From assembly GCA_048213135.1 (NCBI GenBank), contig PS015020.1:330430-372996 (forward strand): 42,567 bases of DNA, read 5' to 3'. This document shows, piece by piece, positions 23 to 42,248 of the stretch. A program made the translations under genes and the position numbers. Position 1 is the first letter of the stretch, and each line of letters opens with the position of its first letter. The notes beneath the pieces were generated by a model that saw only the letters and a program-made list of their open reading frames with translations, searched no databases and was not told the origin of the DNA. Source of the stretch: Reclinomonas americana ATCC 50394 (taxonomy: Eukaryota).

Positions 23-1430
23 TGCAAGGATCTGCACGCCATGGTCGTCATTCTCGACGGCTACGACGAGTGCGTCGAGCCACCGCGGCAGCTGTTTGAT
101 GCGCAGACGTTTGCTGTTGCGTGTGCCCTTCATTTACTCATTTTTTCCGCACGGGCTCACTCGCAATGGCAGGCGTGGCCCAATTTGCTGCTGATCGTGT
201 CGGTGCGGCGTGAGTTCCTGCTCAGTCTCGGTGCCTGCGACGCACTTGCTTTCTTTGCCCCGTCGGCACCGCGATCCGCGCTGGCACAGTGCCATTTGCG
301 GCTGCTGGAGCAGGACGATGTGGACGAATTCCTCCGACGGTGAGAACTCACATGGCCCTCGTCCCCTCCTTCCTCACCTCCTCACCCTCCTCTTCTGTTC
401 GCCGCAGGTTCGTGGTCAAAAAGTCGCGCGGCTACAGCCCGCGCACGACGTGGGAGACGTATCGCGAGTTTCTAGAATCGATCCCCGGTCTGAGGGAGAT
501 GGCGCGCTCGGTGAGACTGTCGCACTCGTCCGAGAGTGGTGCCTCGCACTCACCGTGCGCACTTTGTGCAGCCGCTGCTGTTGAACATGTTGGTGTCGGT
601 CAAAGATGCACTGCGTTCGGCCGCCGCCGAGCGATGCATCACACTCGGCTTTGTCTTCGAGTCGCTGGTGCAGCGAAAGATCGACTGGGAGTGTCGTCAT
701 CACGCTGCCGACATTGAGAAAGTGCGTGCGGTCACTATCCGTATTCATGTGCGCGCGTTACACTCACTCGATTACACGCACACATGCAGTATTTTGTGTC
801 GTCCCGAGAGCAGTTTGCAGAGAGCGTCTTGCAACTCTGCACGGATGTGGCCGGCGAAATGATGCGGTCGTCGGTTTCCATTGTACAGCCCTTTGTTGCG
901 TTTCTCAATCACACACTCTCTCATTTTTCTCATATCTCCCGCTGACTCCAATCCCACAGACGGAACCCGGCACACTGTTAATGGCCGAGTCAGGTGCTTC
1001 ATCTTCTTCCTCCTCCCCCAACGGCGGCGGAGGCGGCGGCAATTCACGTGCAGCGATCGCGGCGCGAGCCGCCAGCCGGATATGGGATACGCGCTTTTTC
1101 AATGTCGAGCCGCATCACGTCACATCGCAGCGTGGTGCGCTGCTGAGGGTTGCGCGCATGGCGCAGCCGCCATTCGCGACCTTTCTGCACCGCTCCATGC
1201 TCGAGTATTTTGCCGCTTGCGACTGGCTCCTCACGTTGTCCCGTCTCACCAACGAGGGAGTGTCGGATGAGGTGCGCTTATGCAGTCTCATGCAATTAGT
1301 ATTCTCCTCGTATCTCAACCGTTTTATTCCTCGCAGGAGCGTCTCGACATGCTCAGCCACTCGCTGGTGGGACAGGTGTTGTTGACACGGAACAAGGATG
1401 TTGCGTCCGCTATACATTCCCTTCTCTTCT

Positions 1431-1492
<62 letters not shown>

Positions 1493-4400
1493 NNNNNNNN
1501 NNNNNNNNNNNNNNNNNNNNNNNNNNNNNNNNNNNNNNNNNNNNNNNNNNNNNNNNNNNNNNNNNNNNNNNNNNNNNNNNNNNNNNNNNNNNNNNNNNNN
1601 NNNNNNNNNNNNNNNNNNNNNNNNNNNNNNNNNNNGCTCACCCGCGAACCGCACAGACTCCTCGCGTCGTGCTCACATTCATTGCGGACCGCGCGCGGAA
1701 CGACGAGGCCGTGCAGCAGCAGTTGTGGCGCTGCATTGAAATGTCACGCGGTCAAGACGAGCCGGCCGTCATCACGGCGGCGGCGAGTGCGGCGGCGGTG
1801 TTGTGCGTCGCACGTGTGCCGTTCTCGGGTCGCGACTTGAGTGGCGTGCGCCTGCGCAATGCCGATCTGCGCGACATGATTGCGCAGCGCGCGGTGTTCC
1901 GTGGCGCCGACCTGCGAGACGCTGTGCTGGAGGAGGCGTACTGCCGCGAAGCCGATTTTTCACAATGCCAGTTGGCAAACGCGCGCCTGACGAGCACCCC
2001 CGAGTTGGTGCATGCGGGCGAGGTGCGTGCTGCGGCGCTGTCGGCCGACGGACGACGCTTGGTGAGCGCCGCCGACGATCAAACCCTGCGCGTGTGGGTC
2101 GCTGAAAGCCACGAATTGCTGGCGTCCCATCGAGTGGGTGGTGTGGTGGGAGTGCTGGCGCTGGCCGGTTCCGATCGCTGCTTGGTGGCGTACACGGCCT
2201 CCCGAGCAGCTGCGGCCGCCGCCGCTTCGGCCGCCGACGGCAGCAACCCCAGCAACGTTGGTGTTATTGCGTTGTTGTCGCTGCAAGACGGCCGCGAAGA
2301 GGGTGTGCTTGCGGGCCACACGGGCACGGTGCGTGCGCTGGCCGTGTCGAGTGACCACACGTCGCTGGCGGTGAGCGGTGGCGACGACCACACGGTGCGC
2401 GTGTGGGCTCTGGAGAGCTTCCAGCAACTGCGCTGCCTGGAGGGGCACCAGGCGAGTGTGCAGACGGTGGCGCTGTCGTCGGGCATGCACCGGGTGGTGT
2501 CCGGCAGTCGTGATCGCACACTACGAGTGTGGGACGCCGACTCGGGAGCGCAACTGCATGTGCTGGAGGGACACACTGGCGCGGTACTGTCGGCTCTTAT
2601 CACCATCGACGATTCGCTGGTGGTCAGCGGTTCGGGCGACGGCACGCTGCGCGTGTGGTCACTGACCACGGGCGCGGCGGTGCGCACCATGAGCGGACAT
2701 GACGGCGGTGTCGCGTGTGTGGCGCAGACGGCCAGCTCGGACGTGCTGGTCAGCGGCGGTGTCGACTGTACGGTGCGACTGTGGTCGCTGGAGAGTGGTG
2801 CCCAGCTGCAACTTCTCGGCTCGCACGCCAACCCAGTGACCGTGGTGTCCGCCGCCCGATCGGCCAACACAATCGCCAGCGGCGGTTTGGATCGGCGTGT
2901 TCGTCTCTGGTCGCTCGCCGTTCCCAACCGATCACCATTCGGTGTCAGTCACCACGAACATCATCATCAACTACACCACCACAATCAGCAACACGATCAG
3001 CAACTTAATAATCAGTCGAATCGGTCGGTCGTTCGTGTGGTGGAGGTGACGCCCGACAACAGCTGCGTTGTCAGTGCCGGCACAGACAATATTGTGCGGT
3101 TGTGGTCACTGGCGAGCGGCGAGGAAGCCCGGAGGCTACCATGCTCAGACCTCACAGGCGTGCGACTGGCCCCCAACGGCAAGTGGATCGTGACCTGCAG
3201 CAGCGACCGCACTCTGCGGGTGATTCCGGTGGCGGCGGCGCCGGAGCTGGCCTCGCCGCGCGTTCTGCAAGGTCACCTAGATCGCGTGACGTGTGTGGCG
3301 GTTTGCAACGACGCGCAGCTGCTGGTCAGTGGCGGCGCGGATGCCACGGTGCGTGTGTGGACTGCGGTGTCGGGCGCCGAAATCGTGCAATACAGCGTGG
3401 ATCCGGGCAGCACGGTCACCGCCGTGGCGTCGTCGCCTGACGGACGCCAGGTAATTGGCGGCACCGACACTGGCGCCATTGTGATATGGTCGTTTGCCAG
3501 GCTCGGTGTGAGTGGCGCCGCTGCCGGTGGCGAGCTGCGGCGCATGCAACCGCACCGCGCGGCAGTGAATGGCCTCACGTGCACACCGGACGGCATCTAC
3601 TTGCTGAGTTGCAGCTCCGACGGCTCCATGGTGGCGTCGCTGCTGGCCACGGGTGCAGCTGCGCGACGCTTCGAGGTCGTGAGTGGAGCTGCGTTCCTGG
3701 CCGTCGCAGTGTCGCCGGCCGACGGCGATCTGGTGGCAGTTGCCTGTGCCGACCACTCGATTCGTTTGTGGTCGCTGGCCAGTGGTACCTCCCTTGGCGC
3801 ACTGCACGGTCACGTGTCGCCGCCGCACTCGGTCGCCGTGTCGCCCGACGGCAAGCGCGTCCTTAGCGGTGCTTCTGACAATACCATTCTCGTGCACTGC
3901 GTGATGGAGGGTGCCGGTGGTGGCGTCGATGCCGTGTCGCCGCACCATGTGGCGGTCTCTGTGCCGGGAGCAGATGTGCGGTGAGTTGCAACGGGGGAGG
4001 TTGGGAGGTGCTTCTACTCACAAGTCTGTGCGTCCCCCTAGTGCACCGTTTGTGCTGCATCGCGTGTTGAGCGTGGACGGCGGCGCAACGTGCGGTCGCG
4101 ATTTCTCCGGCTGTCGTTTCGAGCATGCGCACGGACTGCCGGCAGGAGCCGCCGCAGTAGCAGCAGTCGCCCCCGTGGCGCTGTCGCCCGCTCGAAGCAC
4201 GGACCTGACAACCACTGCAGCAGCAGCAGCGCGGTCACCCGCACCACGTCCGTCTCCCCACGTATCCGCGGCAACGCCTCCTCCATCTCCACCGCCGCCT
4301 GCGGAGAGCCGTCCGTCACCGAGCGGCGTGTCGGCCAATGCGCCCGAGCCGACGCTCGCCTTGGAGGGCTTCAAAAAGGGCGGCATCTTCAACACGACAT

Positions 4401-4690
4401 GGCAAGCGCGTCGCTTGGAGCTACTGCCCACACAGCGTCTCATCCAGTACTACACACCCGGCAAGGACACCGCCAATGGCAACATTGTGCTGACCGACGC
4501 CACGTTTTCGACGCATTCCGAACCCGATCAGCACGACGGCCTGCAGATCTTTGCCGTCACTGTCAATCCCAAGGAGGCCACCACTCGCCGCCAAAACTAC
4601 GTGCTCGGCTTGCGCACACGCGCCGAGCAGGACGCGTGGGTGGCCGCGCTCGAGCAGTCTGGCGCACGTCGCATTGCCCCGCAGTCCTGA
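23..4690 (+). CDS. NACHT NTPase - pentapeptide repeat - WD40 repeat protein with C-terminal PH domain (multi-exon, 5' partial)
   Basis: Walker-B-like VVILDGYDE; LLIVSVRREFL; PLLLNML; FLHRSMLEYFAA; AAASAAAVLCVARVPFSGRDLSGVRLRNADL (pentapeptide block); many GH...WD/WS repeats; PH-like GFKKGGIFNTTWQARRLEL...YVLGLRTRAEQDAWVAAL. GT-AG introns (e.g. 116-172, 340-408, 511-571, 722-789, 3981-4041) join these blocks; 3981-4041 links ORF 1669-3984 to ORF 3911-4690 in frame. Walker A is not in the window. Confidence 0.88.
1433..1635. repeat. (CT)n microsatellite plus assembly gap (N 1493-1635) within a gene 1 intron
   Basis: Direct observation. Confidence 0.95.
1810..1995 (+). other. Pentapeptide repeat domain of gene 1
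   Basis: RDLSG VRLRN ADLRD ... AVFRG ADLRD AVLEE AYCRE ADFSQ CQLAN ARL: A(D/N)LXX periodicity. Confidence 0.85.
2000..3900 (+). other. WD40 repeats of gene 1 (about 13-14, probably a double beta-propeller)
   Basis: Repeated LxGHxxxVxxVAxSxDxxxxVSGxxDxTVRVW. Confidence 0.92.
4355..4660 (+). other. PH domain of gene 1
   Basis: EGFKKGGIFNTTWQARRLEL, LIQYY, GNIVL, IFAVTV, YVLGL...EQDAWVAALE with the conserved helix Trp. Confidence 0.8.
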
Positions 4691-4694
4691 TGTC

Positions 4695-6183: not shown

Positions 6184-9100
6184 ATGATAATCGAACATAC
6201 CGCAGTTGTGCGTCCTTCCTCCTCCCCCTCTCTCACACACACACACGCACACTCACTGCGGCGAGCACAGCGACACCAACAATGGCAGTGGTCTCTTGCC
6301 GTCGTCTTCATGCTGCTCGTGGCCATGAGCGCCACCGCAGGTGATGGAGACTGCACATGTGATTTTTTCGCGCGCAATCTTCCTCTGTCTCTCACTCGCT
6401 CGCACACTCGATCACAGCGGGTCAGCTGAGTGAGACCATCACCAACGTGTCGGCCTCCTCCTCTGCCTCCACTGCCACCACACTCACCATCACCATCACG
6501 CCCAGTGGACCTGCGCAGGTGGCCTATGGCACCACCCCGAGATTCGACATGCAGTGGGTCGACAGCTCAGCGGCTGCGCAGGCGGCAAGCAACGCCGACG
6601 TGACGCCACTCGGCCCCGTCACTGCGCTCACGCCCAGTGTGTGTGCCTGGTCGACATCGACACCCGTCGCCTCCACCACCTGCGTGTTGACGGGACTGAC
6701 GCCCGCCACCAACTACTATCTGCGGGTGAGTGGAGCCTCGTCGCTCACTTACCAGCAGTGTGTGCGTCAGCTGATTGCTGGTTGGCAGATACGCGTGGCC
6801 ACCGACAGCAGCACTGGCGCGTGGTACTACACCGCGTCGACTCTGTTGCACACGAGTCTGCAGGAGACCGTGAGCATGACGGTGACCAGTAGCACCACCA
6901 CTGGCTTTGTGGTGGCGCTGGTGCCGAGCGGCGCCTACCAGGCGGCGTATGGCACCTATCAGAAGTTTGAGTTGAACACAGTGAGCAGCACGGCGGCGGC
7001 GACGGTGGCGGGAGGCGGCACCATCAATGATGACAGTACAGATTCTGTGTCGTTCTCGCCGTCGCCGTGCACATGGGCCGCCGCTGCCAGCACCTCGTGC
7101 ACGATTGTCGGTTTGAATGCGGGCAAGACGTACTACTTTCGGGTGCGTGCACCCCTCCTGCGACTTTGCAGAGAACAACTCGCCTGTGACTCACCACCGT
7201 GTGGTGTGCTGCAGATGCGTGTGAAAACCAGCAGTTACACGGGTGTTTGGGCGTACTACGTGCCGGCATGCCGCACGATGCTGAGTCAGACACTGTCGGT
7301 CGCCGTCACGAGCACCACCACCACAACTGTGGTGCTGAGTCTGCAGCCGTCGGCGGTCGCCTCCTCGTCTGCCACCACGCCCAAGTTCGACATTTACAGT
7401 GCCATTGGCGGTGGCACGCCAGCTGCAGTCACCAACGTCGCTCCCTCGACGTGCACGACGTGGTCCAAGCTGCAAACCAGCGTTGCGTGCTTGAGTGAGT
7501 GTCACACTCTGTTTGTCTTGGTCTCTGTGCACTTATTTATGCTCTGCCCGCAGCCTGTCGTGTGCACCGTGTACGGACTGGCGGCGGCGACCACCGTTGC
7601 GTGGAGTCCCTGAACAATCTTGCCGTGCCCGCCACTCACCTCATGCCCCACAGTTTGCATTCCGTGTTCGTGTGGCCGATGGAACGACACTCGTCGGTGC
7701 CTGGAGCGGAGACTTGAGCGGTGAGGGAGACGAAGGTATTCGTCATGCAGCTTTTTTGGATGCTCACTCGACACGCAGCGACCACGGCGGTGTGGTCTGG
7801 CGTCAATCTCGTGGATCCATTCATCAATGCTGCGCAGTCCACGGCCACCACCATGACATTCTACATTACTCCGTCGACGGCTGCACCGAGCTTCCTGTGC
7901 ATGTTCATGATTTACTCGACGTTTCGTGTGTTAGACCCTCACAACCGAGCGGATTTTCTGCGACGATGCTAACCCGTCTTGCTGCAGCACAAACCTATCG
8001 ACTGCGCTGTCGCAGCAGAGCATCTGCTGGTGGACTACGATCTCTCCTTCGTCGTGCACGGTTGCGTAGTAGCACAGCTGCAGTGAGTTGCCGTCTTTGC
8101 AGTTGTACTCAACGTACCACTGCATGCACCTTGCAGGTCACCGGTCTCACGCAGGGAACGACGTACAACTTTCAAGTCAAGGCATACTATCTGAGTGGCT
8201 CGGGCGCCCTCTCCAGTGTCATCAGTGGTCTGTAGGATTTGTTTCACCCGATGCTCAAGTGTACCCGTTCTCACCCCCGACATTACGCGCAGGGGTAACA
8301 CGACTTGCGGCGACCGCCACCATCTCGTCGGTGGTCTCCGTCTCGTACACCTCGGCGGTGGTCGAGTTGGCGGCCAGTGCGGCGTCGCTGGGTACCACGC
8401 CCGTGTTCAGTGTGTTCGAGTCGGCTGTGCTGGGCACGGCAGTCACCTTTTCGGCACCGTGCACGTGGAGCGCGGCCACAACCCCGCTGCAATGCACGGT
8501 GCGTTTCAAGTGCCGCTGCGTCACGGGCGTGATTCTGGCGTGCTTGACATTGGATGTTGCAGATTATCAACCTGCAGGCAGGCTACCGGTACAGTCTCAC
8601 AGCCACCGTGCAAAACTCATTGACGTTCTCGGCCACCCCTTCGTCTGTGGTCTATGGTGCGTCACTCGGCATCTCACATTTTCATTCTCCTCTGCTCACA
8701 ATATAACTGCAGTCGCCACTCCCATCTCCGCCACCCTCACCTTGTCGACGGTGGTCACCGTCATTGGCAACCAGTGAGTCGCTTCCTCCTTCCGTGTGTC
8801 ATTGCCCTGTCGGTGGCCGCTGAACGTACCTCATGTGCATTCCAGAACCAAATTGTCGGTCAATCCAAGTGCATCGGCGCCGGGACAAGATACAAGCCCA
8901 CGCTTCGAGTTCTTTGTCGACGGTGACTCCTCGTTTTCTGCACTGGCCGTGTCGCCCTCGCCTTGTCAGTGGAAGTTGTCGTCGTCTACCACATGCACTC
9001 TGTCTGGATTGACAACTCCCGCCGAGTACAATGTCCGTGCTCGGCTGGTGACCGACCTGTTCTCCGTCAGTGCTGCCAGTACCGCCGTCGCCACGTTCAA

Positions 9101-12100
9101 GACGAATCTGGTGGAGACCCTCACCCTGGTGAAGAGCACTGCGCTGAGCAACAGCATTACTCTCACGCTGACACCAAGTGGTGTGGCGAGGTATGTCGCT
9201 ACACTCACCTCTCTTCATTGCTTACCGCGTGCACTCACACGCGAGCTCGCTGCTCCGTCGCAGTGTGGCCTATGGAACGACACCGCGCATCGAAGTGAGC
9301 GTGTCGGGATCGGTAGTGAGCACATGCGCCTGGTCAACGGCGTCGGTGGCGGCCGTGGATTGCACGGTCACAGGCCTCCAGCCGCTGACACAGTACACGT
9401 TGAGCAGTCGTCTCGTGACGGATCGCTTTGTGTCCAGCAGTCTCACTTCGCAAGGTGGGCTGTGGAGTCGCGCAACAGCGAGATGAGGAGACTGAGCCTT
9501 GCTGATTACATGTCCCTTGTTTACAGTGTGGACTGCACTGCCGGCCTCGATGGTTCTCGATCGCTTCGAGCTGGACACCAGCACCACCAACCCCGTAACG
9601 CTACGGCTCAAGGCTTCAGATCCTCCCCCGGCTGGCACGACGTCGTCGCCAGTCTTTCAAGTCATTGACGACAATGATTTGTCGCAGACACCTCTCGCTT
9701 TCACGGCCTCCTGCGACTGGACGAACAGGGGCATGGTTTCGTGCGCTCTCTCCAGCCTGTCCTCTTTCACGGCGTATTCTTTGCGTGCACGGCTCTACGC
9801 ACCGCCGTATGCGCCTGGTGTGCTGTCTGCGGCCCTGACGTTCACCACGCCGTTTACGGTGACCGCGACGATAACATCGTCTGTGTCCAGCACTCCCACC
9901 ACTGCCACTGTAGCTGTCGTCGCCTCCGAAGTGGCTGCGTTGCGTGCTGTCCGTGACTACTCGCATTCTTGTGTCTGTCTGTATTGTGACCGTCGATCTT
10001 GTGCAGCGTGAACTATGGAGCGCAACCTGTGTTCCAGATTGTGAACAACACTAACCAGAGCACTGTGCTGTCCACATCCGCTCCCTGCACATGGTCGGCT
10101 GCGTTGACCGCCGCCATCAATTGCACGATCACCGGCCTCAGCGCAGCCACCACCTACGCATTTAAAGTTCGTGTGGCAACCACGCTGGCCACCGGCGATC
10201 TCTCTGCTTCATTCACAGGTGCGCTGAAAACACAGATTTCTCTGTATTCGTCAACTGTTGCTGCACACTTAAATCTCCCCTGTATCATCGGCAGCACGCA
10301 CGGCGGTGAATGCCTCAGTGGCCGCGCAGCTCTCGACTGCCGTCGATGCACTTACGCCCACTAGGTGCGTGCGTCTGTTCCCCCGCGTTCACGGAGTGAT
10401 CGATAGAAAGTTGACACCGTTGTGCGTGCACAGCGCGGTACTGTCGTTGACTGCGTCCGCCGCACCACCGGGTGGCGAACCGAATCCGCGATTTGAGATC
10501 TATGCCGACAGCGATGCCAATTTGACGGCATTGCCGACGAATCCGGCCGTGTGCACATGGACTGGCACCGCTGTGCGGCTGTGCACCCTCACTGGACTCA
10601 CATCACCAACTGCGTACCAGCTTCGTGCGCGACTGGTCACCAGTCTCTACTGGGCCAGCACTCCGTCGGCGTTGTTGCAGTTCACCACGCCACTCGCCAA
10701 TGCGGCCGATGCGTCGCCATCTATTGTTGTCACAAGTTTGGCTGCTCGTGGGTACGTCTTCGTTCTTTTTCTCTCCACCTCGTGTGTGGTAGCTCACCAT
10801 GTGTGCTCTGTTGCGTAGTGCTGTTGTCTCCGTGACGCCCGTCTCGGCAGCATCACACACGGGGGCGCACTTTGAGTTTGTCGCCGACAGTGCGCCGCAG
10901 ACACTGTTGACCACATCGCCAACGCCGTGTGTATGGAGTGCAGCCACGGCCACCGCCTGCACGCTCACGGGCCTCGTGGCGAATCAGGGCTACGCTGTGC
11001 GCGCGCGAGTGGCGGCCGATGGTGTCGGTGCATCGGCTCTGTCGGCCACCGCCGCCAATTTCACCACTCTCCTCGACGTCTCCGTGCTCGTCAGTGCCCC
11101 TGCTCCGCGGGTTTCGTTGACGAGCGCCGTCGTTGTGCTGCAGCCGTCGTCGATTGCCACCGCTGCTCTCGGCAGCAACCCACGCTTCGAGATTGCGCTC
11201 GCCAACGGCGCCACGCCAACGCTGCTGCAGACGGCACCCACCGTGTGTGTGTGGTCGAACGCCACCACGTCGCCCGTGAGTTGCACTGTGAGCGGACTGG
11301 CAAGTCAGGCACAAAATCTGTTGACGGTACGTGTGCGTACCAACTCCAACAGCGGCGCCTGGAGTCCGAACACGCCTGGTATGCGCCGCCTGCCACCGTT
11401 ATTCTATAGTGTTGCACATTGACTCTCCAATTCTGTGCCAGTGAACACCTTGCTTGCCGTCGCGACCACCTGTACAGTGGCGGCGGTGTCGCCCAAGCGC
11501 GTGTCGGTGACGTTGAGCGGCACTCGAGCGCCGACCGACTCTGACGGCTCGAGCCCGCGATTCGAGGTGGCGATGGACGGTGCCACCGGCACGCCACTCG
11601 CGACGTGGCCCACTCGCTGTGCGTGGACTGCGCCACCCAGTGGCGGTGCACAACCAACCACCACTTGTGACATTCTTGGTGTCGTCGGTGCCTCGCTCAA
11701 ATTTGTGGCTCGTGTGCGCACCGACTCGTTAGTTGGCGTGTGGTCGGCAGCCACGTTGGCTGGTGAGCTCGTGAGAATTTCCCCTGCAGTGCGACCTGTA
11801 CTCTCTCACGTGCCAGTCATATCTGTCCCTCCTTGTTCTTTGCAGTAACGGTACCGGGGCCTACGTGCACGGGCACCACGCAGCTGGCGGTGTCACTGGG
11901 AGGCGGGTCAGTGACGGTGAACGACGGCAGTGTCTCCAGTAACATGTACAGTCCAGATCTCTCGTGTCTCTGGGTGCTCACGGTGCGTGCAGAAAACTCA
12001 GCTCTTGTTTTTTCCGAGACTCCTGTGTGACCAACTCTCTATTCTCCCGCTCCCTCTAGTCCACCACCGACGTGCCTGTCGGTGGCTCCCTTCTTGTTCT

Positions 12101-23500: not shown

Positions 23501-24821
23501 GCGCTGTTGAACTGCGGGGTGACACGGCGGTCAGTGGAATGGAGAAGAGTCGATGCCAGTGCACACGGTTACTCAACTCGCACGGGTGCGGACGAGACGC
23601 ACCACGTCGCTGAACGAGAAGATGCCGCGCAGTTGCTGGCCGAGAGCGTCGACAGCCGACTGCGTACAAGTAAAATGGCATGGTAACGGTGAGCATCGAC
23701 AATTTCCCCCATGAACAACACAGAAACGCACTGACTCACCGGGTCGCGTTGCGTCTGACGAGCCGCCAGCAAACGCCGTGCGTGCTTTTCACGCAGGATG
23801 CGATCATTACGCCGGTCGTAGTAGACCACAATCGGGAACATGATAATGTAAAGGATGTGGATGGCCAGAAGCCAGAAGAAGATTGGGCGCTTGTAAATGT
23901 CGGAGAGGAAGCTGAAATCGAACGGATTGGCAAAGGTGAACTCGATGGCAAAGATCTGCGCACATCAGACGCATTGAGCAAAGGCGGGAAACAGATGGCA
24001 GGCCAGCCAGCAGGAAAGAACGCAACGGCTTGCAGATCAATCGTGAAATCAGTCATGTGGTTGCACGCGCAGTGAATGCGCGTGACGTTGCCACCAGGCT
24101 GCACCTCCAAGTAGGCCGAGCAGCCGTCGGAACGGAAGGTGCTCGTGTGCTGCGACAAAGCGGGTGTGAGCAACGATGTGACGGGAGTGCAAGGGGAAGG
24201 AATTAGCGTGGCACTATACCTCATCCCAGTAGACACACATGTCGAGCGCAGGCGGAACAACCTTGGTCGGCTCGCCAAATGTGCTGTTGCAAATGTGGAA
24301 TGCCGGAAGCAAAATGGCGTAGTTGGCGGCGGCCGGCGGCTGCACAGGCATGTCGTTGTTGCACTTGGAGATGCGGTTGAGGACGGTGGTCTGTGGGTCG
24401 ACACCATGTGAGCTAGACAGGCATGTTTTTGGTGGGGGCTCAGGAACAATGAAAACACGCAACGAATGCCGGCTGCAGCTGATCAAACAGGGCGCGCGAC
24501 TGCTGTCCGATTTCAAACGAAAAGTTGTCGGGCATCCTCTCCAGCGGCAGCGGCACCAAGATAGACGTCGGATCGCGGTCGGTGCGTCTTTGGAAGACGC
24601 TAATGCGCTGCACCGGTGACGCGAGACGGTTGGAGAGATGGTCGTTGCGAATGTCCAGTGCGTATGGGTTCGCCGCGGAATCGAATTGCACCGACATGTA
24701 GACCGGCGAGCGAGTGGCGAGCGTGGTCGTGTAGGAGCGCGGCACACTGAAGCTCGAGAAGAAGTGCTGGCTGCTGAGGGGCTGCACATCGGGAATGCCG
24801 GCGGCGATGTTGTCCTTGATC

Positions 24822-24867: not shown

Positions 24868-25084
24868 TGATAGTAGACGACGAGAGTACGTACGTAACGA
24901 AACGTAACGACGACGAACGAAACGAACGCGTACGGTACGGAACCGGTACCGTACCGGACCGGGTCCGGTTACCGGNNNNNNNNNNNNNNNNNNNNCGGTA
25001 CGGTAACGGTACGTACGTACGGTACGGTACGTACGTACGTACGACGAGTAGACGTAAGTAGGACGGTACGTACGGACGACGACG

Positions 25085-25119
<35 letters not shown>

Positions 25120-28100: not shown

Positions 28101-31100
28101 CAACCACGGGTCCATCGATCCATCCTTGTGCGGCATTGAAAAACATGCACATGCGATACTGCTCCCGCTCCAATGCCACGAAATCATACATGCCAATCAG
28201 CAAGTCGGCGGAGCGGCCATTGTCGCTAATACCGGTGACGGTGAACGACACACGCACGGTGAGGTGGGCCGTCGTATCCTGGCAGGACTCGTAGAAGCGC
28301 ACAAACGTGAACGAGTCGCCAGCGGTAAGACCGCCAACACCACTGTGTAGGGTGGCTGGCGTGGTGGTTCGCACATACAGCTCGGGAATCGAGAGCGTAA
28401 TGTCCGTCGACTCGGGTGCTACAGTGGGGCAGAATGAGCACAACAGGAACTGCAGTGAAGGACAGCCTGAGCGTCAACGTACCAATGTCAAACACGGCTG
28501 CCGTGGCGACGGGTCCGGCATTCGGCACGTCGCCGGCAAAATCGACGCACAGCTTGTATCCGTTGCGCACAATGGGCGTGCTGAGCTCCGCGACAGCGAT
28601 GCTCAGTGACGCCTGACGACCAAAGTCGCTGACGCTCTTGCAGGTGACTGTGATGTCGACAATGACGCTGGCCGAATCGGTGCAGGCGGCGGTAACAGGC
28701 ACCACAAAGTAGTGATCCTGCGGCAGCAGACCGCCGTCACCATTGCTGGTGACACTGACTTCGGTGGTTGCACGCAGCGGCAGGAATCCCGAGTTCACGG
28801 TCAGCGAGTTGACGTCCGGAGCTGCGAACAAACACAGATAGTGGATGAGACATGCGAGGCAAATACATGATATGTGCAGGTGGGTGACGCACAAACAAAG
28901 AGGTACTTGAGGGCAGCACCCATGCCAGCCGAGCTCTCCGCGAGAAACACGCGGCCCGTCTGTGTGTCAACCGCCATGCTCGAAATGGGAGACAGGCTGA
29001 CTGTGGCACCGGGGCACGAGGGAGCATTGTCCAGCGCCGGCACCGCGACTCCAATGAGGTTTTTCTGCAGAGATGTGAGACACTTGTTGGCACGAGGGCT
29101 CAATGGTCGAACGCACCATATTGATGCAACCAGAAGGGGTTTCATGACCGGCGACTTGCGTGCCCACCAATGTGGGATTGACGGGGTCGAGCACCCAAAT
29201 CTGAGAACACAGAAAACCGAGGATGTCAGTCTTTCTTTCTTTCCTTTTCCCTCAAAAAAAGACACAGACCTGCCCGTTCATCGCGTCGGCGACATACAAA
29301 TTACCGTCGACGCCAGTGGCCAGCGCTTGCGCGGCCCAGGGAACCACGCGCGTAATAGTGTCGATCCTGACGGTCTGTGCATCCACCCAGCGCAGCTGAC
29401 CATTCGATTCGGTGTAGAACGTGTTGAGGCTCGGATACGGTTGCGCGGCCGACACTGGTGTCTGCACGCGGGCACTCGCCGCAGCGCCACCGTCGCCGCT
29501 AATGCCCTGTTGAATAAATAAGGAAATAAGTGATGAGTTTAGTCGACAGAACCGGTCCGGTCACCACACGAGGGAAAAAGACGCAACTGGCACACCCGTG
29601 CCAACCAGGGCGGTCGGGTAGGCGCCGGGCAAGTAAATGGCAAACACCGACGCCTCCTCGGAGAGGGTCGTATTCGTAGTCATGTCGTAACCATCTACTG
29701 TGGTGCTGACCGACGTGCTCAGCAGCCACATTGTGTCGGCGCCAATGGCGGGGTTGAGCGACGTGTAGTGACCGCCGAGACGACCGGTGAGCAACTGCGT
29801 GTCGCAGCAGTGCGAGTCGGAGTCGTAGTTGGCCGAGCTGATGAGTCCCGTGTCCATGTCGACCACTCGCAGGGGTTTGCGACCGAACTGCATGAGGGAA
29901 GAGAGGAAAAGGGGGAAAGGGGGAAAGGGGGGAACGGGGGAAAGGGGAAAGGGGGAAGGGGGACGGGGGAATGAGAGAGAGGGTGAGAAGGGGAAAGGAG
30001 AGGGTGAGAAGGGGAAAGGAGAGAGAGGAGGGGGGTGCATTGAAGGTAAACGACGTGGTGCAGCATTCTGGAAGTGAATGTGTGAGAGAGACAGAAGGGA
30101 GAGAGAGATAAAGATGACAGGGGATCCATCATGATCCGCGGTGCAAATAACGGTGTATGCAGAATTTCAGTGAGTGAGCGAGAGAATAGGAGGTGAGAAA
30201 AGAGGGCGGGAGAGCGGAGTGCAACAAAGGAAAACGACGCGAGATCTTGTGAGAGACGGTACCTCGGCGACATACAGCTGCTTGCCGTCGAGGCTGAACG
30301 CCAAGCCCACGGGCTCCTGTGAAACGAGAGAAGGATGCGTGAGAAAAGCGAGAAGGGAAACAAAGAGACCCACACACAGACAGACCAACAACGTGGCACT
30401 GGTGGCCGCGATATCCTCCGCGTCGGGCGTGGTGGCCACTCCGGCGACTCCGCACTGCCCAATCACCACTTGTGCGACCGCGGCATTCGGTGGCAGCGGA
30501 ACCCGATAGCAGCAGTGTGCAAATCTCTGGAGCACAAAGTGAGTGAGTGGAGACAGCAGAAAACAGAGGGAGAGAGAGAGATGAGAAAAAAACGCAACAT
30601 CGCAAACGTATGGTTCATGACTGATGGGGTTCACTGCAAACGAATGGGTGAGTAGGTGCGACTTAAAGTGTGTCGCCTAGTGCGCCTTATCCGACGCCTA
30701 AAGTGCACAAAAGGAGAGAAGGAAGCGAAGAGAAGAGAGAGTCAATCTCTGCTGTTGTGTGAGGTGCACAAAGGAGAGAGAAGGCTGCTCTCAATCTCCA
30801 CAATCAGTCGTGCACTTACTCTCTCATGCATGCTCGTGTGTGCACAGAGACAGAGAGAGAGAGAGGAGGGTGAGTGAGCAGTCAGAGAGAGACCAGTCAG
30901 AGAGATGCACGCATCTTGCTCCGAATGTGCTGCTGTCACTCTCTCACTCTCTCTCTCTCTCTCTCTTACACACACACACACTCTCACTCTCTCTTCTGTC
31001 CACACTCTCACTCTCTCTTCTGTCCACACTCTCACACACTCACACACTCACACACTCAACATTCACTCACTCTCCATCTTGTATTGGGGGTGCATGTCAC

Positions 31101-32149: not shown

Positions 32150-34270
32150 TTACTTGCCCGTTGGTGACGTGGCGCCCGGTGGCGGCTTCACCTCTCGAGG
32201 TTCGCAACGCAGCGAGGCCTTGTCTTGCTCGATCTCCGACAGCACCGGCATGTTGGTGAGCCAGTGGAGCAAATCTACCACCACCTACGTCAGTCCACTT
32301 CCACACAAACAAGCACACACCGAAACAGACGTAACATGGTACAGGGGTGATGGCATACGGCGTCTGCTGGTAAAAGGCGACCTCCTTGATAATGGCGGCG
32401 ATCTTCTTGTACTTGAAAAAGTTGACCATCTTGGTGTCGCCGACAAACGGCACGTTCTCGTCCAGGTGCACCAACAGCGTCAAGAAGGAGCCGACAAACG
32501 GAATCGAGGGTGGGAAGGCGGCCTTGACCGCCGCGCGGAGCTTGCCGTTGTTGGCGTCGAACGAGGAGAGGTCCTCCAGCGCGGTCACCATTTCCTGCTT
32601 GCGCTTCGACACCATGGCCTTCATCTTCTTCAGCCGATGGATCGGCGCCGACGTGAGGCCCATAACAATGGCCAACAGCGTGCTGAAATTGTGCAACGGC
32701 GAGCGACAACACTGCACGACACGACACGACTCGCAAGCCATGAGCACCAATGTGGGGAGGAGGCACTGAGAGACAGAGAAGTACTGACCTCGGCAATCTC
32801 GATCCACTTGCCGTACACCTTCTTGCGCCGGTACGCATCCTCCTCCGAGACAATCGACGACGCCACAAACCACGTCACCATGGTGGAGCGACGAATGAGA
32901 CGAATAATGTTCGGAGCGATTTCCATCTTGGTGGGTCGCGTCCACGCCTGGCGAATGAATTCGCGCGGCTGAATGCGACGGTACAACGAGTACTCGACCA
33001 GAGTCAGCTGGCGCGCCAACTCCATTGAATTCCACTGCAGCAAGTTGAGCGGGGCCGCACGGCTGACCAGTCGCAAGTACTTGCGCGGCAGCAGAGGCGG
33101 CGCCAAATTCACCACCACGAATTTCATCCAGTCCAAGTCGCTCGTCTGGCCACTGCCCAGCAACTGTAGCGATAGGAGTGAGACAGGCGTCGGAAAAGCA
33201 GCACCCCCCTCTCTCGCTCCCTCTCACCTCCTTGAGAAGCGCACGCTGCAGGATTTTGGCACTGCTGCGCTGGTGCGTGGCCATGAACATGTCGCAGAAT
33301 CGCGTCAGTCGTGCAATTAGTGGCACGTCCAAATTGTAAAACTGCTGATCGACAATCTTGCGGAGCACGCCGAGCACACTGCGTGACATGACGACACAGC
33401 AATGAGGCAAGATATCGACATTGATCAATGGTCAACCGCCTGGCATACCGTGTACGACTGGCATTGCTGTCGCGTTCGTCGCCTCTTGCAAACTCCGGGG
33501 CAGCAATATATCGCAACATTAGCTGCTGGATGAGTTCGGTTGGAGTGGTGAACCAGCGGTACGTCAGCAGGAACTCGGTGGAGAATGCTTGGCCTGTGAC
33601 GCGCGCAATCAGTGAGGAGAACAACAAGGAGAGGTGGGGAAGACTGCGACATGGAGAAGAGAAAAGAAAAAGAATACCGCAGACGAAGAGGAAACGCAGA
33701 AAATAACAGGAGTGACGGGAAATTAAAGAAACAACAACAACAACAAGAAACAAGAACGAATGAAGAAGACGAAGGGAGAGAGAGAACAGAGAGAGAATGC
33801 GAAAACATCAAGGACGACAATAAACAGGAGGAGATACTCAAAGAAAGCACAACAAAGACCCGGGGACGAATGAAGGTGGAGAGAGAGAGAGAGAGAGGAA
33901 GAGACAATGCCGAAGACAACGATGAAAGGAGGAGAAACTGACGAAAACACGGCAGAGATCAATGACGACTAAATGTAGTGAAAACAAAGAGAGAGAGAAA
34001 CGAGAAACCAGAGCTAAAATATATAAAGTCACAGCAGCCTGATTCACGCACTTTCTGTCTCATTCCCATTTCCTCCCTTTTCCCTCTAATTCCCCCTTTC
34101 CTCCCCTTTCCCTCCCATACGAACCGAAATTCTCGTGACTGGCCAACTTCTCAATCAGCTTCTCGACCGTGCCGGCGGCAATCTGACGCACGCCAGGTGC
34201 CTCCTGCGGCAGTGGCACTGCTCCCGATGCCCCGGCCGCGTTGTCGCCCTCCTCCTCCAGCTCGCCCTCA
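32150..34270 (-). other. REM + CDC25-homology RasGEF catalytic domain of gene 5
   Basis: Canonical CDC25 motifs present in order; intron 34124-33594 joins ENF|GQAFSTEFLLTY in frame. Confidence 0.93.
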
Positions 34271-37200
34271 AAGAGGATGACGGTCGGGCTGTCCTGCTCC
34301 ATGGTGGCAGCGATCCGTCGTGCATTCGTCACCTTGCACAAGAGTAAAATGCATGAGAACGGCAACAACAAGAAGTCACGTCGAGCAGTGACAGACCTCC
34401 TCATCAAACGTGCCCAGCACGCCGCCCGACGAAATCAGCGAGTCACGACGTCCGCCCGTCGATTGCGGCGCGGGCGGCGCACCGCCAATGACAATGGACA
34501 TCATGTCCTCGAGGCGGCGCAGGCCAAACTGCGCGAGGCCCTCGCGCAGATACAACCGTTCGCCCCACTGGCGCATGTGGGCCTCCAGTTCCGCATTCCA
34601 CCGCTCACATTCGGCCTCGTTGAGACCCTCGCCCAACTGCACAACAATGAGATTGTCGGTGGGAGCGTGAGGAAGCACAGTGGCGGGCGACTGCACGACA
34701 GACCTTGATCAAAATGTGCAACATAGACGTGACCTCCGGCTGTGTAAACAGCAGCGTCGGCATGCGGCAGTGCGACATTACGGCACTGAAGACAAGAATC
34801 CAACTGCGCTGTCCACGTTGCATCTCAGGAGCTCCTGTGTGCGACGGGGGAATGAGTTGCAAAAATCGAGAGCACCATCACACAACCGCACAACAAACCG
34901 TGGCAGTAGTGTCGCGAGAGAAGCGGGGCGTACAGGTTGAGGAAACAGGGTAGCGCGCTGGTGAATGCATGCTGCAGCGGCTTCGACAACTCCGAAAGCA
35001 GTGGGGTGGGGATCATGACCGAATCGCTGCGCGCACACACACACATAATTGGTAAGCACGAGGGACACACACATCCACAAAAAATGAGATCGCCAAACCT
35101 TCCACTGCCCAACGAGGACACCTCTGCGCTCATGACATCGCTCAAGCAGAAAATCGCTTGATGCAACATGGCGGCGGCCTCCTCCACCACCGACAGCATG
35201 GGGCCGGAGAGCGAGCCGTCAGCCAGAGAGCCACCGAGCTGGAAGGCCACTGAATCGGACTTGGCGGCGGCGGCAGTCGGCAGCTCGACCGACGGCGGCA
35301 TCAGCAGTGCCAGTGCGTGGCTGACTTGCGTCGACGGGGGCGGACACACGCACATGGCAATGGACAACATGTCCAAGGCCACCACGCCAGCCACATCACC
35401 AAACATCTGTTGGGAGGGAGGTGAGTATGCACGCCGTCGCTTTTTTCTTTCTTTCTTCATGGACGCAACGGCTGGTACGCCGGAAGAGCTCTCCACCGGG
35501 AAATCGGACTTGTCGACATCGTCGGGTCGCGCAAAGAGACGAATCACGTGATTGAGCAGGCGCACAAAATTGCACACGGCAGTGTACGTGAAACCGGCCA
35601 CCCATGTCCTACGCGCCCACGAAAGCAGTGAGGGACAAACAAAATAAAACAAAATGACCAAGCAAGCAGCTGCTGCCACGCAACACCAAGTACTTGCGCT
35701 CGAGGCTTCGCAGCAAATAAAGTACACAGAGGAGCAAGTCGCGCTGCGTCGCCAGAGGGAGGAACGGTACTTGCTGCACATCTTCGATAATCTGCGATGT
35801 AAGGCAGCAGGCATCGTGTCAGCCTATGCTCCGACACACTCCGTGCGTGTGTGTGTGGTTTCGCGACAACGCACCATTTGTAACAGTGGAATATACAAAC
35901 GCGCGACGCGATGCCGCGCTCCAGGATTCTGGTATCTAGCATCGAGATCGTGCTTCCGCAGCACGTGTCGCACAAGAGACACGGCCTGCAAGCACAATGA
36001 GCACCAACAAAAAAACAACGGCAAAAGTCATCTTTCCCCTCGTGCACGACGCACCTCGGATCGAATTACAGGAGACGGTTGGCGGAAGGCACGATCAAAC
36101 ACAAACGCCAGCCACTCGGGCAGACGCGGCAGCTCGTCAAACTCCGACCCAAGCGGACCGGGCACTGGAGACTGACTCAATTCCACCAACTCCGAGTGGT
36201 CCATCACCACGCGCAGGAACTCGAGCTGCACGCGCAGCGCGTACTGCGACACCGAAGTCAATAGTTGATCCAACTCGTCCTCCGGCTTGACTGCCTCGTC
36301 TGCTTTGGCCGTTGGTTTGGCCGTCAGCTGATACTCGACAGGAATGGACACCGGCAGCGGCTCCGGCGCCTTCTTCGACTGCTTGCGTGACTTGCCGTCC
36401 GCCGCCGCGGGCGCCTCCTCTTCCTCTTCTCCTTGTCCGAACTCCCAGGTGAAGCCAGAGGTCTCCATGAATGTCAGCACCTGTTGAACAAGGAGAGTTG
36501 AGACATGGATGCAAAAAGGCGTATCACTCGTGTCAAACAATAACACACCAGCTGCATGACCGTGGGCGTGTCCAACACTCCAAACAGATCGTTGATGAAG
36601 AGCGCCACGGCACGGACCATGCCCGTGGCCGTCGTGCTGGCACCCCGCTCTGCTACAGACGGTGGCTGCACCAGCAGGTCAATGGCGCGATGCGACACGC
36701 CCTCGATCACCAGCTGCAGCAGCTCACGCGTGCGGAACAACTGGTCACGACAATCACCATGAGTGCACTGCGCAGAGCATTCTCTCGCTCCCCACACACG
36801 CTTTCCACTCACATCCATGGCTGCCGTGTTGGGATCGCTGGCAGGGAGGCTCTTGAAATGCAACGCCAGGCTCTTGGCAATGAGATCAAACATGAACCAC
36901 GAGTAGGTGGACGAGTCGCGCAGAGCCTCCGACACGGTGTGCTCCTCGGCCAAGTTGGAAATGTTGGGTCGTGGAAGAGCAGCCTGAAACACCGAATGAT
37001 GAGCGAAAAAACATACAAATGCTGTGCAGAGCACACACATCAAAACGCACCCGTGCAGTAAAGCGACGCGTGTCGGCCAGCAAGTTGGCCTGCTCCAACA
37101 TGTCGACCTGCAACAGCGACAGTGTGTTGCAGAAACGGTGCAGAAGCAAGCCGTACTCCTGTCGCCGTGAGAGCACCGAGCTTTCGACCACCACCGACTC

Positions 37201-39318: not shown

Positions 39319-39368
<50 letters not shown>

Positions 39369-42248
39369 TAGAAGAAAAGCGCAGAAGAGACGTTGTGCAC
39401 GAGAGAAACCCCCGATAGAGCGGCACACAAGTGCGTGAGGGGTGAATGTGCAAGCGACGAAACGCAAACTCCAGCACGTCCAACAGCGGTCGAGACAGGC
39501 GATAGAAATCGCGGAGTCTCGAGTGCTGCGGTACCACCGAGCTGATCATGCGAGTGGAGATGATCAACAGCTCGCGACTGTTGGCCAGCGTCGGCAATCT
39601 GCGCAGCATCAGGCACGTGAGCAGATAGTATCAAGACAAACACGGGTCCCGCAAAATAGGACGCAACTCAGCGCGTACAGAATGCGATGTGTACGACGAC
39701 TTGAGTTGTGTAAACACCGGCAGGCCGTGGATGGTGTCGGCGGCACCGCCCTCGTGCAGCGGCAGTACAGCGTAACCGATCAGAGTCTACAAAGAGAGTG
39801 CAATGTTAGCAAAGGGGAAGGGAAGAAAGATGGAGAGGAGGAGGGAGGCGAGAGAAGGAGGCGAGGGAAAGAAGGATAAGGGGAGCGGAAGCAATGAGGG
39901 GCAGTAAGAGTGGAATAGCAAGGGAGACGCGAGAAGGGTGAATAGAAAAGGGAATTGGAGGAAGCAGTAATAGATAGGGGAACGGGAAAAGGACGAAGAG
40001 AAAAGGGAGTGGGAGGAAGCAGTGACGGACAGAAAGTAAGGGAAACACGAGAGGGACGAAGAGAAAAAGGGTGGATGCGGAAGGCAGTATCGAAAGGACT
40101 TGGAAATGAGTGGAAACGTGGATTTGCGAGTGAGAGAAAGAGGGAGCAAGAAGTGAAAAAATACGCCTATCTCGCGACACTCTTTCTCCATTCCCCGCCA
40201 CCCACTCACCTTGTGTCCCGGTGTCCACAAAAACACATTCTTCGACACGCCACGCTTCTTCGGCACATTGTAGATGAGGAACAGCAGGTGATGCTGACCC
40301 GAGGTGGTGACCAGCGGCATGGACACGCGAAATTCGTCGCGGAATGCGGGATTCTGCGAGAAGAAGAAGGTGAGTTTCTACCACACAAAGCACCGACAAT
40401 ACAGCGTTTGATCCAACCTGACTCCTGTAGTGAACCTGCAATGCAACATACGGACGTGAGTACGCGACGAAACAAACAAGACACAAAGAGAGATAGAGAG
40501 AGAATCACGCACATGTGTCTGCGCGCAATTGGTCAGCAGCGGCGCTCCGTGCTTGGTGTAAATGTTGTGCAGGATGCCGGGGAGCGAAAAGATTTCGCGA
40601 TCAGTCGGGTAGAGGCCAAGTGTGCCGCGCGGCAGCACATCAGTGTCACGATACAGCATCTGCGTGCCACCAATCGTCGCACAATTAAACTCTCTCACCG
40701 CAAATCACCCTCTCTCCCACTCCCACGCACCTTGACCAACACACTCTTGACGCCCTGCATGCCGGTCAACCGCACGGTCCGCGGGTACACAAACAAGTCG
40801 TTCACGTAGTTGAAGGTGGGGACGCGCGGTGCATACAGCGGCATCTCCACCACGCTGCGGAAGCTGCGCAACAAACGCTCCTCCAGCGCAAATCGCAAGT
40901 AGTGCGTGTCGATCTCGCGAGGCACGTCGGCCGGCAACAGCCCCTCTTGGCGCAGCGACAACGCCACCATCTCGGTCGACGGCTCAATGCCCTCGGCAAA
41001 GTCGACCAGGCCAGTGAGACCCACGGACAGGCCGCGTCGATTGAGCACACGCGCCGCCGGCACAATGGTGATCTCCTCGTTGGGCTCCAATCCAGCATTC
41101 ACATCGTCGTCCTCCACGTCGGCACGCAGCGGGGTGATGTTGAGCAGAATGTGCCCCGGCAGCACAGTGAGACCGGCACCCTGTCGTTTCACCGCGTCGC
41201 ACACGTCGAATGGGCGGCTCTCGTCGGCCGATGGCACCTGGCAGTGAGAGTGAGGGATCACCACCACATACACAGAAAAAATGAGCGAGAGAGAGAGTAC
41301 CTCGTAAAGCGGCTCCAGTTTGAAGAGTCCCTCACGAACGTGCAACGCCTCCAGATCCGACCGCACAATCACCGACGTGCGGCGGTCTGACTCGGCCAGC
41401 CCCGACATGTCCTCCTCGTCCTCCCTGCGCGCGACAAAACGAATGGTCAATGGCGGGGGATATGACACGCGCGCACCGCTTCAAATAATGTACCTGTCGG
41501 TGCGGATGAGGCGGAGGGATGTCCACGCGAAGGGCTCGCGGAACTGCGAGAAGAAGCGCCTTTGCTCCTTGTGCTTGAAGTCGACCATCCTGGGAGGTGA
41601 GAAGGAGTATGAGTGGATCACCAGCAGGCTCTGTGAATCTCTCCATTGCACGCAACTCTCGATCGAGATCGTTGCGTGGCTGGTACGGCACGAGCGAGAT
41701 CGAGTGCGGCGCACCGTGCAGCACTCGCTCCAACCACACCACCAACACCACACGCGCAGTCGGCTCCGACAACGTGAACAGCGCACGTGCGCTCACGGGC
41801 GACCGTGAATCGCTGCCAAACTCGTAGCCACCCTCCGACGGAGGAAGAGCAGCCATGTGCTGTGACGAGAAACATATACTGTGAGAAAAGTGCGAGAAAC
41901 AGTCGGGGGTGGAGGAAAGAAAAGGACCTTGGCGCTGTTCAGCTGAAAGTGAAACGTCTCCGACAGCTTCTTCTTGGTGATGACATCGTACAGAGCAGCA
42001 CCGCAGAAAATGGCCTCCAAGTCACCGGCGTCGAAACGCACACGATTGAAGGAGATCAGCAGCTTGGTGCAGCTGAGGAAATGAAATCAGCAAGACGCTG
42101 TCTTTCTATTGTATGCAGATCAAAAGGACGCAACGTGTTGAGGGCATACGGCGGCAGCAGTCGCCGGTTGCACAGCAGCGACTCGGCGAGAATCGGAGGC
42201 GCCTCGTACGGGTTGAACAGCTGGAATAGCGGCAATGAAGGTGAAAGC
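32150..42248 (-). CDS. Zizimin/DOCK-C/D-type N-terminal, C2 (DHR-1) and ARM scaffold fused to REM + CDC25 RasGEF domain (multi-exon, probably 5' partial)
   Basis: DOCK motifs: EAIFCGAALYD..KKKLSETFHFQLN, WLERVLHG, FREPFAW, YVNDLFVYP, HHLLFLIYNV, IGYAVLPL, STRMISSV, FLPVILNIMF, YSWFMFDLIAKS, QLEFLRVV, KHDLDARY..RVARLYIPL. RasGEF motifs: AGTVEKLIEKL, FLLTYRWFTTP, ELARQLTL, LHNFSTLLAI..GL, IPFVGSFL, VNFFK, SLRCEPR. Confidence 0.85.
38785..39040. repeat. Intronic ~114-bp imperfect duplication
   Basis: GTGGCTGACATGGAGGC...GGGGGCGAAGGAGGAAA at 38791 and 38905; partial third copy near 39011. Confidence 0.75.

Follow-up and report, generated by a model that had tools for sequence, protein, structure and literature searches.

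How does a spliceosome recognise introns that start with GTTGCGT, which looks like the ordinary donor GTGCGT with one extra T? The question is raised by a stretch of Reclinomonas americana ATCC 50394 DNA of 42,567 nucleotides (nt; hereafter the window; G+C 58%), which carries intron-dense eukaryotic genes, on the + strand over approximately 1-20,500 and on the - strand over the remainder. According to Pfam, the + strand genes are a NACHT/WD40 STAND-type gene, a PH-domain gene and a large fn3/REJ receptor gene; those of the - strand are a REJ/GPS receptor gene paralogous to the + strand receptor, a RasGEF gene and a DOCK-like gene. T is in excess on the transcribed strand, and this skew tracks gene orientation. 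We conclude that this organism has a second, genuine and abundant class of 5' splice site, GTTGCGT, in its ordinary U2-type GT-AG introns; approximately 13-17% of the predicted introns of the window start in this way, more than with any other heptamer.

All introns described here are predictions from sequence. They were obtained with a purpose-written gene finder that combines codon log-odds with an intron model. The latter scores base composition from +9 on, intron length and matrices for the branch point and the 3' site, and it was fitted to 33 seed introns whose donors are canonical, GT[GA][AC]GT. An earlier finder with a one-exon codon model and a flat intron penalty gave noise, and too low a penalty over-split the genes to 507 introns; the earlier versions were replaced by self-training with the seed-trained 3' model. 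The donor-agnostic run, which demands only GT at the donor, yielded 157 sense introns and 15 (spurious) antisense introns after self-training, and the refined run, to which a first-order donor model was added, yielded 144 introns.

In the donor-agnostic run, GTTGCG was the top donor hexamer (21 of 157 sense introns), followed by GTGCGT (14), GTCTGT (7), GTGCGC (6) and GTGAGT (6). It was also first by usage, serving as donor at 21 of its 44 sense occurrences (binomial p ~1e-16). The canonical hexamers came next in this ranking, with 14-29%, which validates the donor-agnostic method. The heptamer GTTGCGT was used at 18 of 23 sense occurrences, compared with 157 of 3294 (4.8%) for all sense GT (binomial p ~4e-20), and for four of the five unused copies the finder settled on a GT in frame 3-12 nt upstream. 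GTTGCG starts none of the 15 antisense introns of this run.

In the refined model, GTTGCG starts 25 of the 144 introns (17%, 95% interval 12-25%), namely 22 with GTTGCGT, two with GTTGCGC and one with GTTGCGG. Here 22 of the 23 sense copies of GTTGCGT are donors; the lone non-donor copy, at 10810, sits in the 3' end of another intron. The T at +7 matters, as only three of the 21 sense occurrences of GTTGCG[ACG] are donors. GTTGCGT itself is found 23 times on the transcribed strand vs 3 times antisense, and Markov models of order 1-3 predict 6.5-7.6 copies on the sense strand. The comparison on which the original prediction had staked the class was that with an independent-position donor model; built from the 144 donors, such a model expects 0.30 GTTGCGT donors, and 22 were observed. 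The 16 sites listed in that prediction were all found at their coordinates and strands, 15 of them without G at exon position -1 (the exception is 8061). The abundance claimed for the class was borne out and had even been under-counted, because the refined model contains all 16 sites and nine more (donors +895, +16366, +18404, -41656, -35684, -35469, -26150, -24463 and -22994). The 25 introns are given below, where "new" marks these nine, "read-through" refers to translation of the unspliced intron, and a slash in a peptide marks the splice junction.

116..172 (+): GTTGCGT intron, 57 nt, NACHT/WD40 gene, both runs; read-through in frame, support coming from the branch point and 3' site (gctcac..cag)
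895..959 (+): GTTGCGT intron, 65 nt, new, refined run; read-through stop at +48
1400..1656 (+): GTTGCGT intron, both runs, of uncertain length as it spans an N gap (1493-1635); read-through frameshift
7482..7553 (+): GTTGCGT intron, 72 nt, fn3/REJ receptor gene, refined run; retention would move the conserved W and C of an fn3-like repeat apart by 24 residues
7596..7653 (+): GTTGCGT intron, 58 nt, junction AATT/FAFRVRV; read-through stop at +15
8061..8136 (+): GTTGCGT intron, 76 nt, junction CT/VTGL; read-through stop at +6; no other in-frame GT
9939..10006 (+): GTTGCGT intron, 68 nt, supported by a paralogous repeat; read-through frameshift
14299..14366 (+): GTTGCGT intron, 68 nt, refined run (donor-agnostic run: GT 3 nt upstream, in frame); read-through stop at +58
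16366..16438 (+): GTTGCGC intron, 73 nt, weaker variant, new, both runs; read-through frameshift
18264..18329 (+): GTTGCGT intron, 66 nt, both runs; read-through in frame
18404..18478 (+): GTTGCGG intron, 75 nt, weaker variant, new, both runs; read-through in frame
19732..19801 (+): GTTGCGC intron, 70 nt, both runs; read-through frameshift
22924..22994 (-): GTTGCGT intron, 71 nt, REJ/GPS receptor gene, new, both runs; read-through stop at +18; no other in-frame GT
23956..24026 (-): GTTGCGT intron, 71 nt, both runs; read-through frameshift; no other in-frame GT
24391..24463 (-): GTTGCGT intron, 73 nt, new, both runs; read-through stop at +21
26083..26150 (-): GTTGCGT intron, 68 nt, new, both runs; read-through stop at +19
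26322..26384 (-): GTTGCGT intron, 63 nt, both runs; read-through stop at +28
27142..27205 (-): GTTGCGT intron, 64 nt, both runs; read-through frameshift
29507..29587 (-): GTTGCGT intron, 81 nt, both runs; read-through stop at +24
30527..30598 (-): GTTGCGT intron, 72 nt, junction YVCD/RFAHC, refined run (donor-agnostic run: GTTTGCG 9 nt upstream); read-through in frame
35407..35469 (-): GTTGCGT intron, 63 nt, new, refined run (donor-agnostic run: GT 9 nt upstream); read-through in frame
35609..35684 (-): GTTGCGT intron, 76 nt, new, both runs; read-through stop at +73
39599..39667 (-): GTTGCGT intron, 69 nt, DOCK-like gene, both runs; read-through stop at +34; the upstream exon weakly continues the DOCK-C2 profile (positions 108-149, E=0.1)
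41590..41656 (-): GTTGCGT intron, 67 nt, new, both runs; read-through frameshift
42073..42134 (-): GTTGCGT intron, 62 nt, both runs; read-through frameshift

Since these are predictions, the class could be an artefact, the segments being coding or the true donors lying elsewhere, with GTTGCGT enriched for an unrelated reason. Six of the 25 introns can be read through in frame, and the finder does make errors. It missed an in-frame GTGAGT...CAG intron at 6726-6788 (+); near 8563 (+) it placed an acceptor 15 nt too far downstream, where the repeat motif calls for CT/IINLQAGYRY; on the - strand it picked a donor at 40164, where continuity of the DOCK-C2 profile suggests GTGAGT at 40209; and it fused neighbouring genes. 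Exact recovery of the seed introns was 16/33 in the donor-agnostic run and 23/33 in the refined run. We nevertheless consider an artefact very improbable. The enrichment is approximately tenfold when no donor preference is given, and the sense to antisense ratio is 23:3. Removal of the intron is needed for the reading frame in 19 of the 25 cases, where read-through meets a stop (11) or causes a frameshift (8). In-frame alternative GTs between -30 and +60 nt are few and none is donor-like; nine sites have none at all. Moreover, branch and 3' signals at the correct spacing were found by a model trained on canonical introns only and devoid of length, coding or donor terms: the best 3' signal lay 50-90 nt downstream for 13 of 23 GTTGCGT copies vs 549 of 3179 other sense GTs (p=3e-5).

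Three junctions also argue against an artefact, as they can be compared with paralogous sequence. A common motif, C-x-W...C-x-[VLI]-x-GL-x5-[YF]-x-[FL]-[RK], runs through the fn3-like repeats of the large receptor. Splicing at 7596 gives GLAAATT/FAFRVRV, whose GL-x5-[YF]-x-[FL]-[RK] spacing is exactly that of the paralogous repeats; the product of splicing at 8061, SSCT/VTGLTQGTTYNFQ, likewise keeps the C-x-[VLI]-x-GL spacing exactly. The intron at 9939 shares its repeat position and phase with a GTATGT intron at 9191 (SEVA/AVNYG vs SGVA/SVAYG). At the level of the translated repeats, the paralogues confirm the predicted junctions at 7596, 8061 and 9939. All three junctions quoted in the original prediction (AATT/FAFRVRV, CT/VTGL and YVCD/RFAHC) were reproduced. 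Exon-by-exon Pfam analysis around 116, 39667, 41656 and 42134 gave weak, non-decisive matches only (NACHT E=0.034, DOCK-C2 E=0.1). Cross-checking the two REJ/GPS paralogues was also tried and rejected, their 22% identity being too distant for residue-level checks.

In all respects other than the donor, the GTTGCG introns resemble their neighbours. GT...AG ends are present in 25/25, but the finder demands GT and AG. The 3' ends are GCAG (12), ACAG (8), CCAG (3), TCAG (1) and GTAG (1), and acceptors of the GCAG or ACAG type are found in both intron classes. The median length is 69 nt in the GTTGCG class and in the other introns alike, and base composition is alike too (T 34% and C 32% in the GTTGCG introns). 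A CTVAY branch motif 8-45 nt from the 3' end is present in 20/25 GTTGCG introns vs 85/119 others. The bases downstream of GCGT have the same distribution in the GTTGCGT and GTGCGT classes, and a sequence logo of the GTTGCG introns shows no conserved motif past +7.

An introner carrying its own GTTGCGT end, or U12-type introns removed by the minor spliceosome, might also be expected to show a uniform length and a sharply defined heptamer at the end. Both were considered and rejected, and we regard them as extremely improbable. The mean number of shared 8-mers per pair is 0.16 (maximum 4) among GTTGCG introns and 0.17 among canonical ones, and 5/300 vs 22/1653 pairs share at least three; there is no similarity between copies beyond the splice signals. 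The class is also spread over all four gene groups (3/13, 9/58, 5/30 and 8/43 introns). The absence of mutual copies and this spread argue against introners and, together with the motifs, against the U12 type: the donor is GTTGCG[TCG], TATCCTT occurs in no donor, neither the /RTATCCTT donor nor the branch site TCCTTRAC is present, and the introns have ordinary CTCAC, CTGAC or CTAAC as branch motifs. As a separate observation on the acceptors of the whole window, approximately half of the introns have G at -4 of the 3' splice site (GCAG in 77/144 introns; G at -4 in 21/33 seeds), an unusual extension of the YAG consensus.

The classes differ on the exon side. Canonical donors have the exon consensus (A/C)AG and the GTTGCG class has none. 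The original prediction had proposed that the class avoids -1G, and this was upheld: -1G is found in 2/25 GTTGCG introns vs 17/33 of the unbiased seeds (p=0.0006), and codon composition alone would give 7.45 (p=0.009). The other refined-model introns have -1G in 90/119, a value that the donor model inflates. Hardly any intron of the class is in phase 1 (1/25 vs 43/119 in the others, p=0.0007). Within the limits of a small sample, the -1 base profile of GTTGCG introns resembles the canonical -2 profile (chi-square p=0.25) and not the canonical -1 profile (p=5e-9).

The inserted base is always T, and only T is tolerated: GT[ACG]GCGT is a donor at 0/19 sense occurrences (GTAGCGT n=0, GTCGCGT n=8, GTGGCGT n=11). 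The related donors GTTTGCGT, at 15696, and GTTACG, mentioned in the original prediction, are present as well. GTTTGCGT, which has two extra T, is a donor in the refined model at 2/2 sense occurrences. The junction of the GTTACGT donor at 32335 was confirmed across species, the spliced PVP/YLLHWL matching PIPYLLAHL in the 73%-identical protein P0121. The insertion is combined almost only with GCGT, as GTTGCGT and GTGCGT number 22 and 21, and GTTGAGT and GTGAGT 1 and 9 (p=0.03). The introns with these related donors are the following.

15696..15750 (+): intron with GTTTGCGT donor, refined run
39173-39469 (-): intron with GTTTGCGT donor, refined model
32275..32335 (-): intron with T-inserted GTTACGT donor, 61 nt, RasGEF gene
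23512..23577 (-): intron with GTTGAGT donor (GTGAGT with inserted T), both runs, the only one in the model

A further donor type, GTCTGT, with C at +3 and T at +4, was observed in eight uses, all with -1G, and GGTCTGT is a donor at 8/10 sense occurrences. The donors are at the following positions.

4963 and 8228 (+): GTCTGT donors
27047, 29269, 30385, 34396, 34703 and 38573 (-): GTCTGT donors

The T-only insertion, the identical downstream context, the similarity of -1 to canonical -2 and the use of GTTTGCGT at both of its copies bear out the description of GTTGCGT as GTGCGT with one extra T. For its recognition we propose that UGCGU pairs with the standard U1 small nuclear RNA (snRNA), and later with U6, in a register shifted or bulged by one base, and we give this proposal about an even chance of being correct. 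The pairing register and the standard form of U1 and U6 are the parts of the explanation that we infer. The UGCGU block would pair with U1 A7 to A3 as in canonical sites, one base deeper in the intron, and in the shifted register the first G of the intron would sit opposite U1 C9, the place normally held by exon -1G; in an equivalent view, one U would be bulged. Cleavage would still take place 5' of GU, and U6 would later have to tolerate the one-base offset too. Seen from U1, both classes would read G-N-U-G-C-G-U (GGUGCGU or GUUGCGU), with the cut wherever GU lies. The extra base would have to be U because it pairs with U1 A7 while U+2 is kept for catalysis. Shifted or bulged reading would explain the T requirement, the identical context after GCGU, the dispensability of -1G and the likeness of -1 to canonical -2. 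With about one in six predicted introns starting in this way, an off-register splice signal, rare in humans, appears to be routine here.

Several results weigh against this proposal. The standard U1 5' end is ACUUACCU. Assuming standard U1, counting by hand gives four Watson-Crick pairs and one wobble for the offset register compared with two and one for the canonical register, with an energy of about zero either way. In ViennaRNA duplexfold calculations against the standard U1 5' end AUACUUACCUG, the mean was -1.06 kcal/mol for the 25 GTTGCG sites, -4.76 for GTGCGT donors and -5.32 for all other donors, so that essentially no stable pairing was found at these 25 sites in any register. The interpretation given in the original prediction, which left the choice between routine shifted-register recognition and variant U1/U6 snRNAs, was supported in part: the extra T and the one-base shift of the -1 profile stood, and predicted pairing to standard U1 was almost nil. 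So weak a site would be expected to need help, and the exon, 3' signal and usage results run the opposite way. There is no exon complementarity, with -1A in 6/25 and -1G in 2/25 although -1G would stabilise either register, and the 3' signals of GTTGCG introns are no stronger than average. GTTGCGT is the most reliably used heptamer (22/23 vs 13/19 for GGTGCGT), and sense-strand copies that are not donors are slightly rarer than expected (1 observed vs 4.7-6.6). Standard U1 favours A facing pseudouridine 5, yet GTTGAGT is rare (1 vs 22 GTTGCGT). It should also be mentioned that the refined finder is partly self-reinforcing.

The near absence of pairing with standard U1 keeps alive the alternative of a lineage-specific snRNA variant, either U1 itself or a second U1 paralogue, with a 5' end that would form an uninterrupted duplex with GUUGCGU, the sites then being strong and not off-register. 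The usage, the lack of help from the exon and the preference for C fit such a dedicated complement at least as well as they fit a shifted register. The heptamer hardly varies at any of its seven positions, even at +5C, which is inexplicable by standard U1; exonic AG is not needed; no other heptamer has such high usage, and copies that are not donors are mildly avoided; and GCGT is preferred to GAGT specifically among T-inserted donors. On the other hand, few RNA sequences of eukaryotes are as conserved as the U1 5' end. U6, whose ACAGAGA box is catalytic, meets the same offset, so that with a variant U1 alone tolerance of a bulge would still be needed. The two GTTTGCGT donors fit flexible spacing better than one fixed complement, and the likeness of -1 to canonical -2 fits a shift on standard U1. 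On balance we hold a variant snRNA to be rather unlikely, though a variant U1 is a serious contender. In its broader form, the idea is that the major spliceosome reads two parallel 5' splice-site codes, the ordinary (A/C)AG/GTRNGT and an intron-only seven-base GUUGCGU, the latter at high affinity by means of a complementary U1 variant or a protein pocket for the extra U. This we put forward only tentatively, as a possibility that is itself doubtful; if it were true, GUUGCGU would be a strong signal instead of a tolerated defect, and would be actively avoided elsewhere in transcripts. An Rfam scan of the window found no match at the gathering score, and hence no U1, U6 or other snRNA gene.

It is also conceivable that the heptamer is recognised mainly without U1 pairing, which would then be incidental. 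Candidate readers would be a protein pocket for the extra U in the U1 small nuclear ribonucleoprotein or tri-snRNP, an intron-definition factor, or early recognition by U6/U5. The near-zero predicted U1 pairing and the strict T requirement would suit such a reader, as would the very short and uniform introns (median 69 nt), which are typical of intron-definition systems. No positive evidence for it was found, however, as the logo carries no extra motif beyond +7, and the GCGT block common to both classes points to a common RNA reader. We therefore judge recognition of this kind to be improbable.

Further observations concern the surrounding genes and repeats. The STAND-type gene (2-3981, +) has upstream exons with NACHT motifs, which match Pfam weakly (E=0.034) and whose translation shows VVILDGYDE and SPLLLNML; downstream of them lies an exon of 782 aa with abundant WD40 repeats. 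A protein search with the WD40 exon found only generic relatives of at most 36% identity, bacterial NB-ARC/WD40 proteins among them. With 22% identity over ~1000 aa, the two large REJ/GPS receptor genes are only distantly paralogous; they are arranged tail to tail, with predicted stops at 20518 (+) and 20567 (-); as these are only ~50 nt apart, the 3' untranslated regions probably overlap. Protein searches at the longer lengths with the DOCK open reading frame (ORF) and the RasGEF exon gave no match. An exhaustive HMMER search with the RasGEF exon found P0121, a 123-aa fragment of 73% identity, as the best match; the others had at most 45% identity, the named ones being spread over Amoebozoa, chytrid fungi and Heterolobosea. 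The window's own proteins were absent from the protein collections searched with the DOCK ORF, WD40 exon and RasGEF exon, and the source organism appears to be unannotated and poorly sampled.

The window has two N gaps, 1493-1635 and 24976-24995, both adjoined by (CT)n/(TC)n microsatellites. These repeats lie at ~1440-1492, 24900-25180 and 38900-39470, give runs of SLSLSL when ORFs are translated, and fill long introns of the DOCK-like gene that are rich in pyrimidines (AT skew up to 0.47). With Rfam at E<=1, only sub-threshold matches resembling microRNAs were obtained (MIR533, MIR156, MIR529 and others), on both strands of a low-complexity stretch at ~30834-31018, the best scoring 38 bits vs a gathering score of 80. 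This stretch is hairpin-prone and lies at the 5' end of the - strand receptor gene, and the matches are probably spurious.

How does the GTTGCGT class compare with splicing systems already known? Compared with the U2-type introns of the window itself (GTGCGT, GTGAGT and GTCTGT), its introns share length, composition, CTVAY, GCAG/ACAG acceptors and the GCGT core, whereas the others lack the extra +3 T and have exonic (A/C)AG, with -1G in 47/58 vs 2/25. Shifted-register 5' splice sites in human were reportedly described by Roca and Krainer in 2009. Both those sites and ours have an extra U after GU, a block displaced one base downstream and no conventional +5G; in human, U1 pairing improves when slid by one base and cleavage stays at GU, as would be the case here under the proposed register. 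Such sites are rare in human, whereas in the window a single heptamer opens about every sixth predicted intron and outnumbers every other donor. Human sites have AAGU as the block and ours GCGU, with far weaker predicted pairing and a register that is itself a predicted one.

Experiments in human cells have established both the shifted and the +2/+3-bulge registers (Tan et al. 2016, PMC4856993); there, one extra nucleotide between GU and the downstream block is tolerated in the helix of 5' splice site and U1, as proposed here. Their Table 3 gives 68 predicted +2/+3-bulge sites among 201,541 human 5' splice sites, well under 1% compared with 13-17% of the predicted introns here; all validated noncanonical registers together account for 1.5% of those sites. 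U12-type introns likewise form a second class with a highly conserved 5' motif beside ordinary introns, but their donor and branch motifs are absent here, and the GTTGCGT class is far commoner than the 0.36% quoted for them in human (PMC4856993). Lineage-wide departures from the textbook 5' splice-site code are described for the tunicate Fritillaria (PMC13326754) and the hemistasiid diplonemids (PMC12621601). As here, the textbook code was left and the U2-type spliceosome kept; there GT-AG itself was abandoned, whereas here it is retained and only the spacing of the downstream block is changed, in a subset of introns. No account of the GTTGCGT class was found among the papers listed in full-text searches of CC-licensed PMC and bioRxiv, although a genome paper could exist elsewhere.

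Off-register recognition is not known other than as a rare exception in human genes (~1.5% of sites for all registers combined, PMC4856993). A free-living eukaryote with an off-register commonest intron start would be a natural system for studying how U1 and U6 tolerate an extra nucleotide beside the catalytic GU, and would bear on the co-evolution of snRNA 5' ends with splice sites and on the trade-off between exon and intron contacts. In practice, position-independent donor models would mis-annotate about one in six introns of this genome. In comparison with the known systems, the GTTGCGT class would work like the human shifted or bulged sites, and differs from them in its scale, its GCGU block and its dominance as a heptamer.

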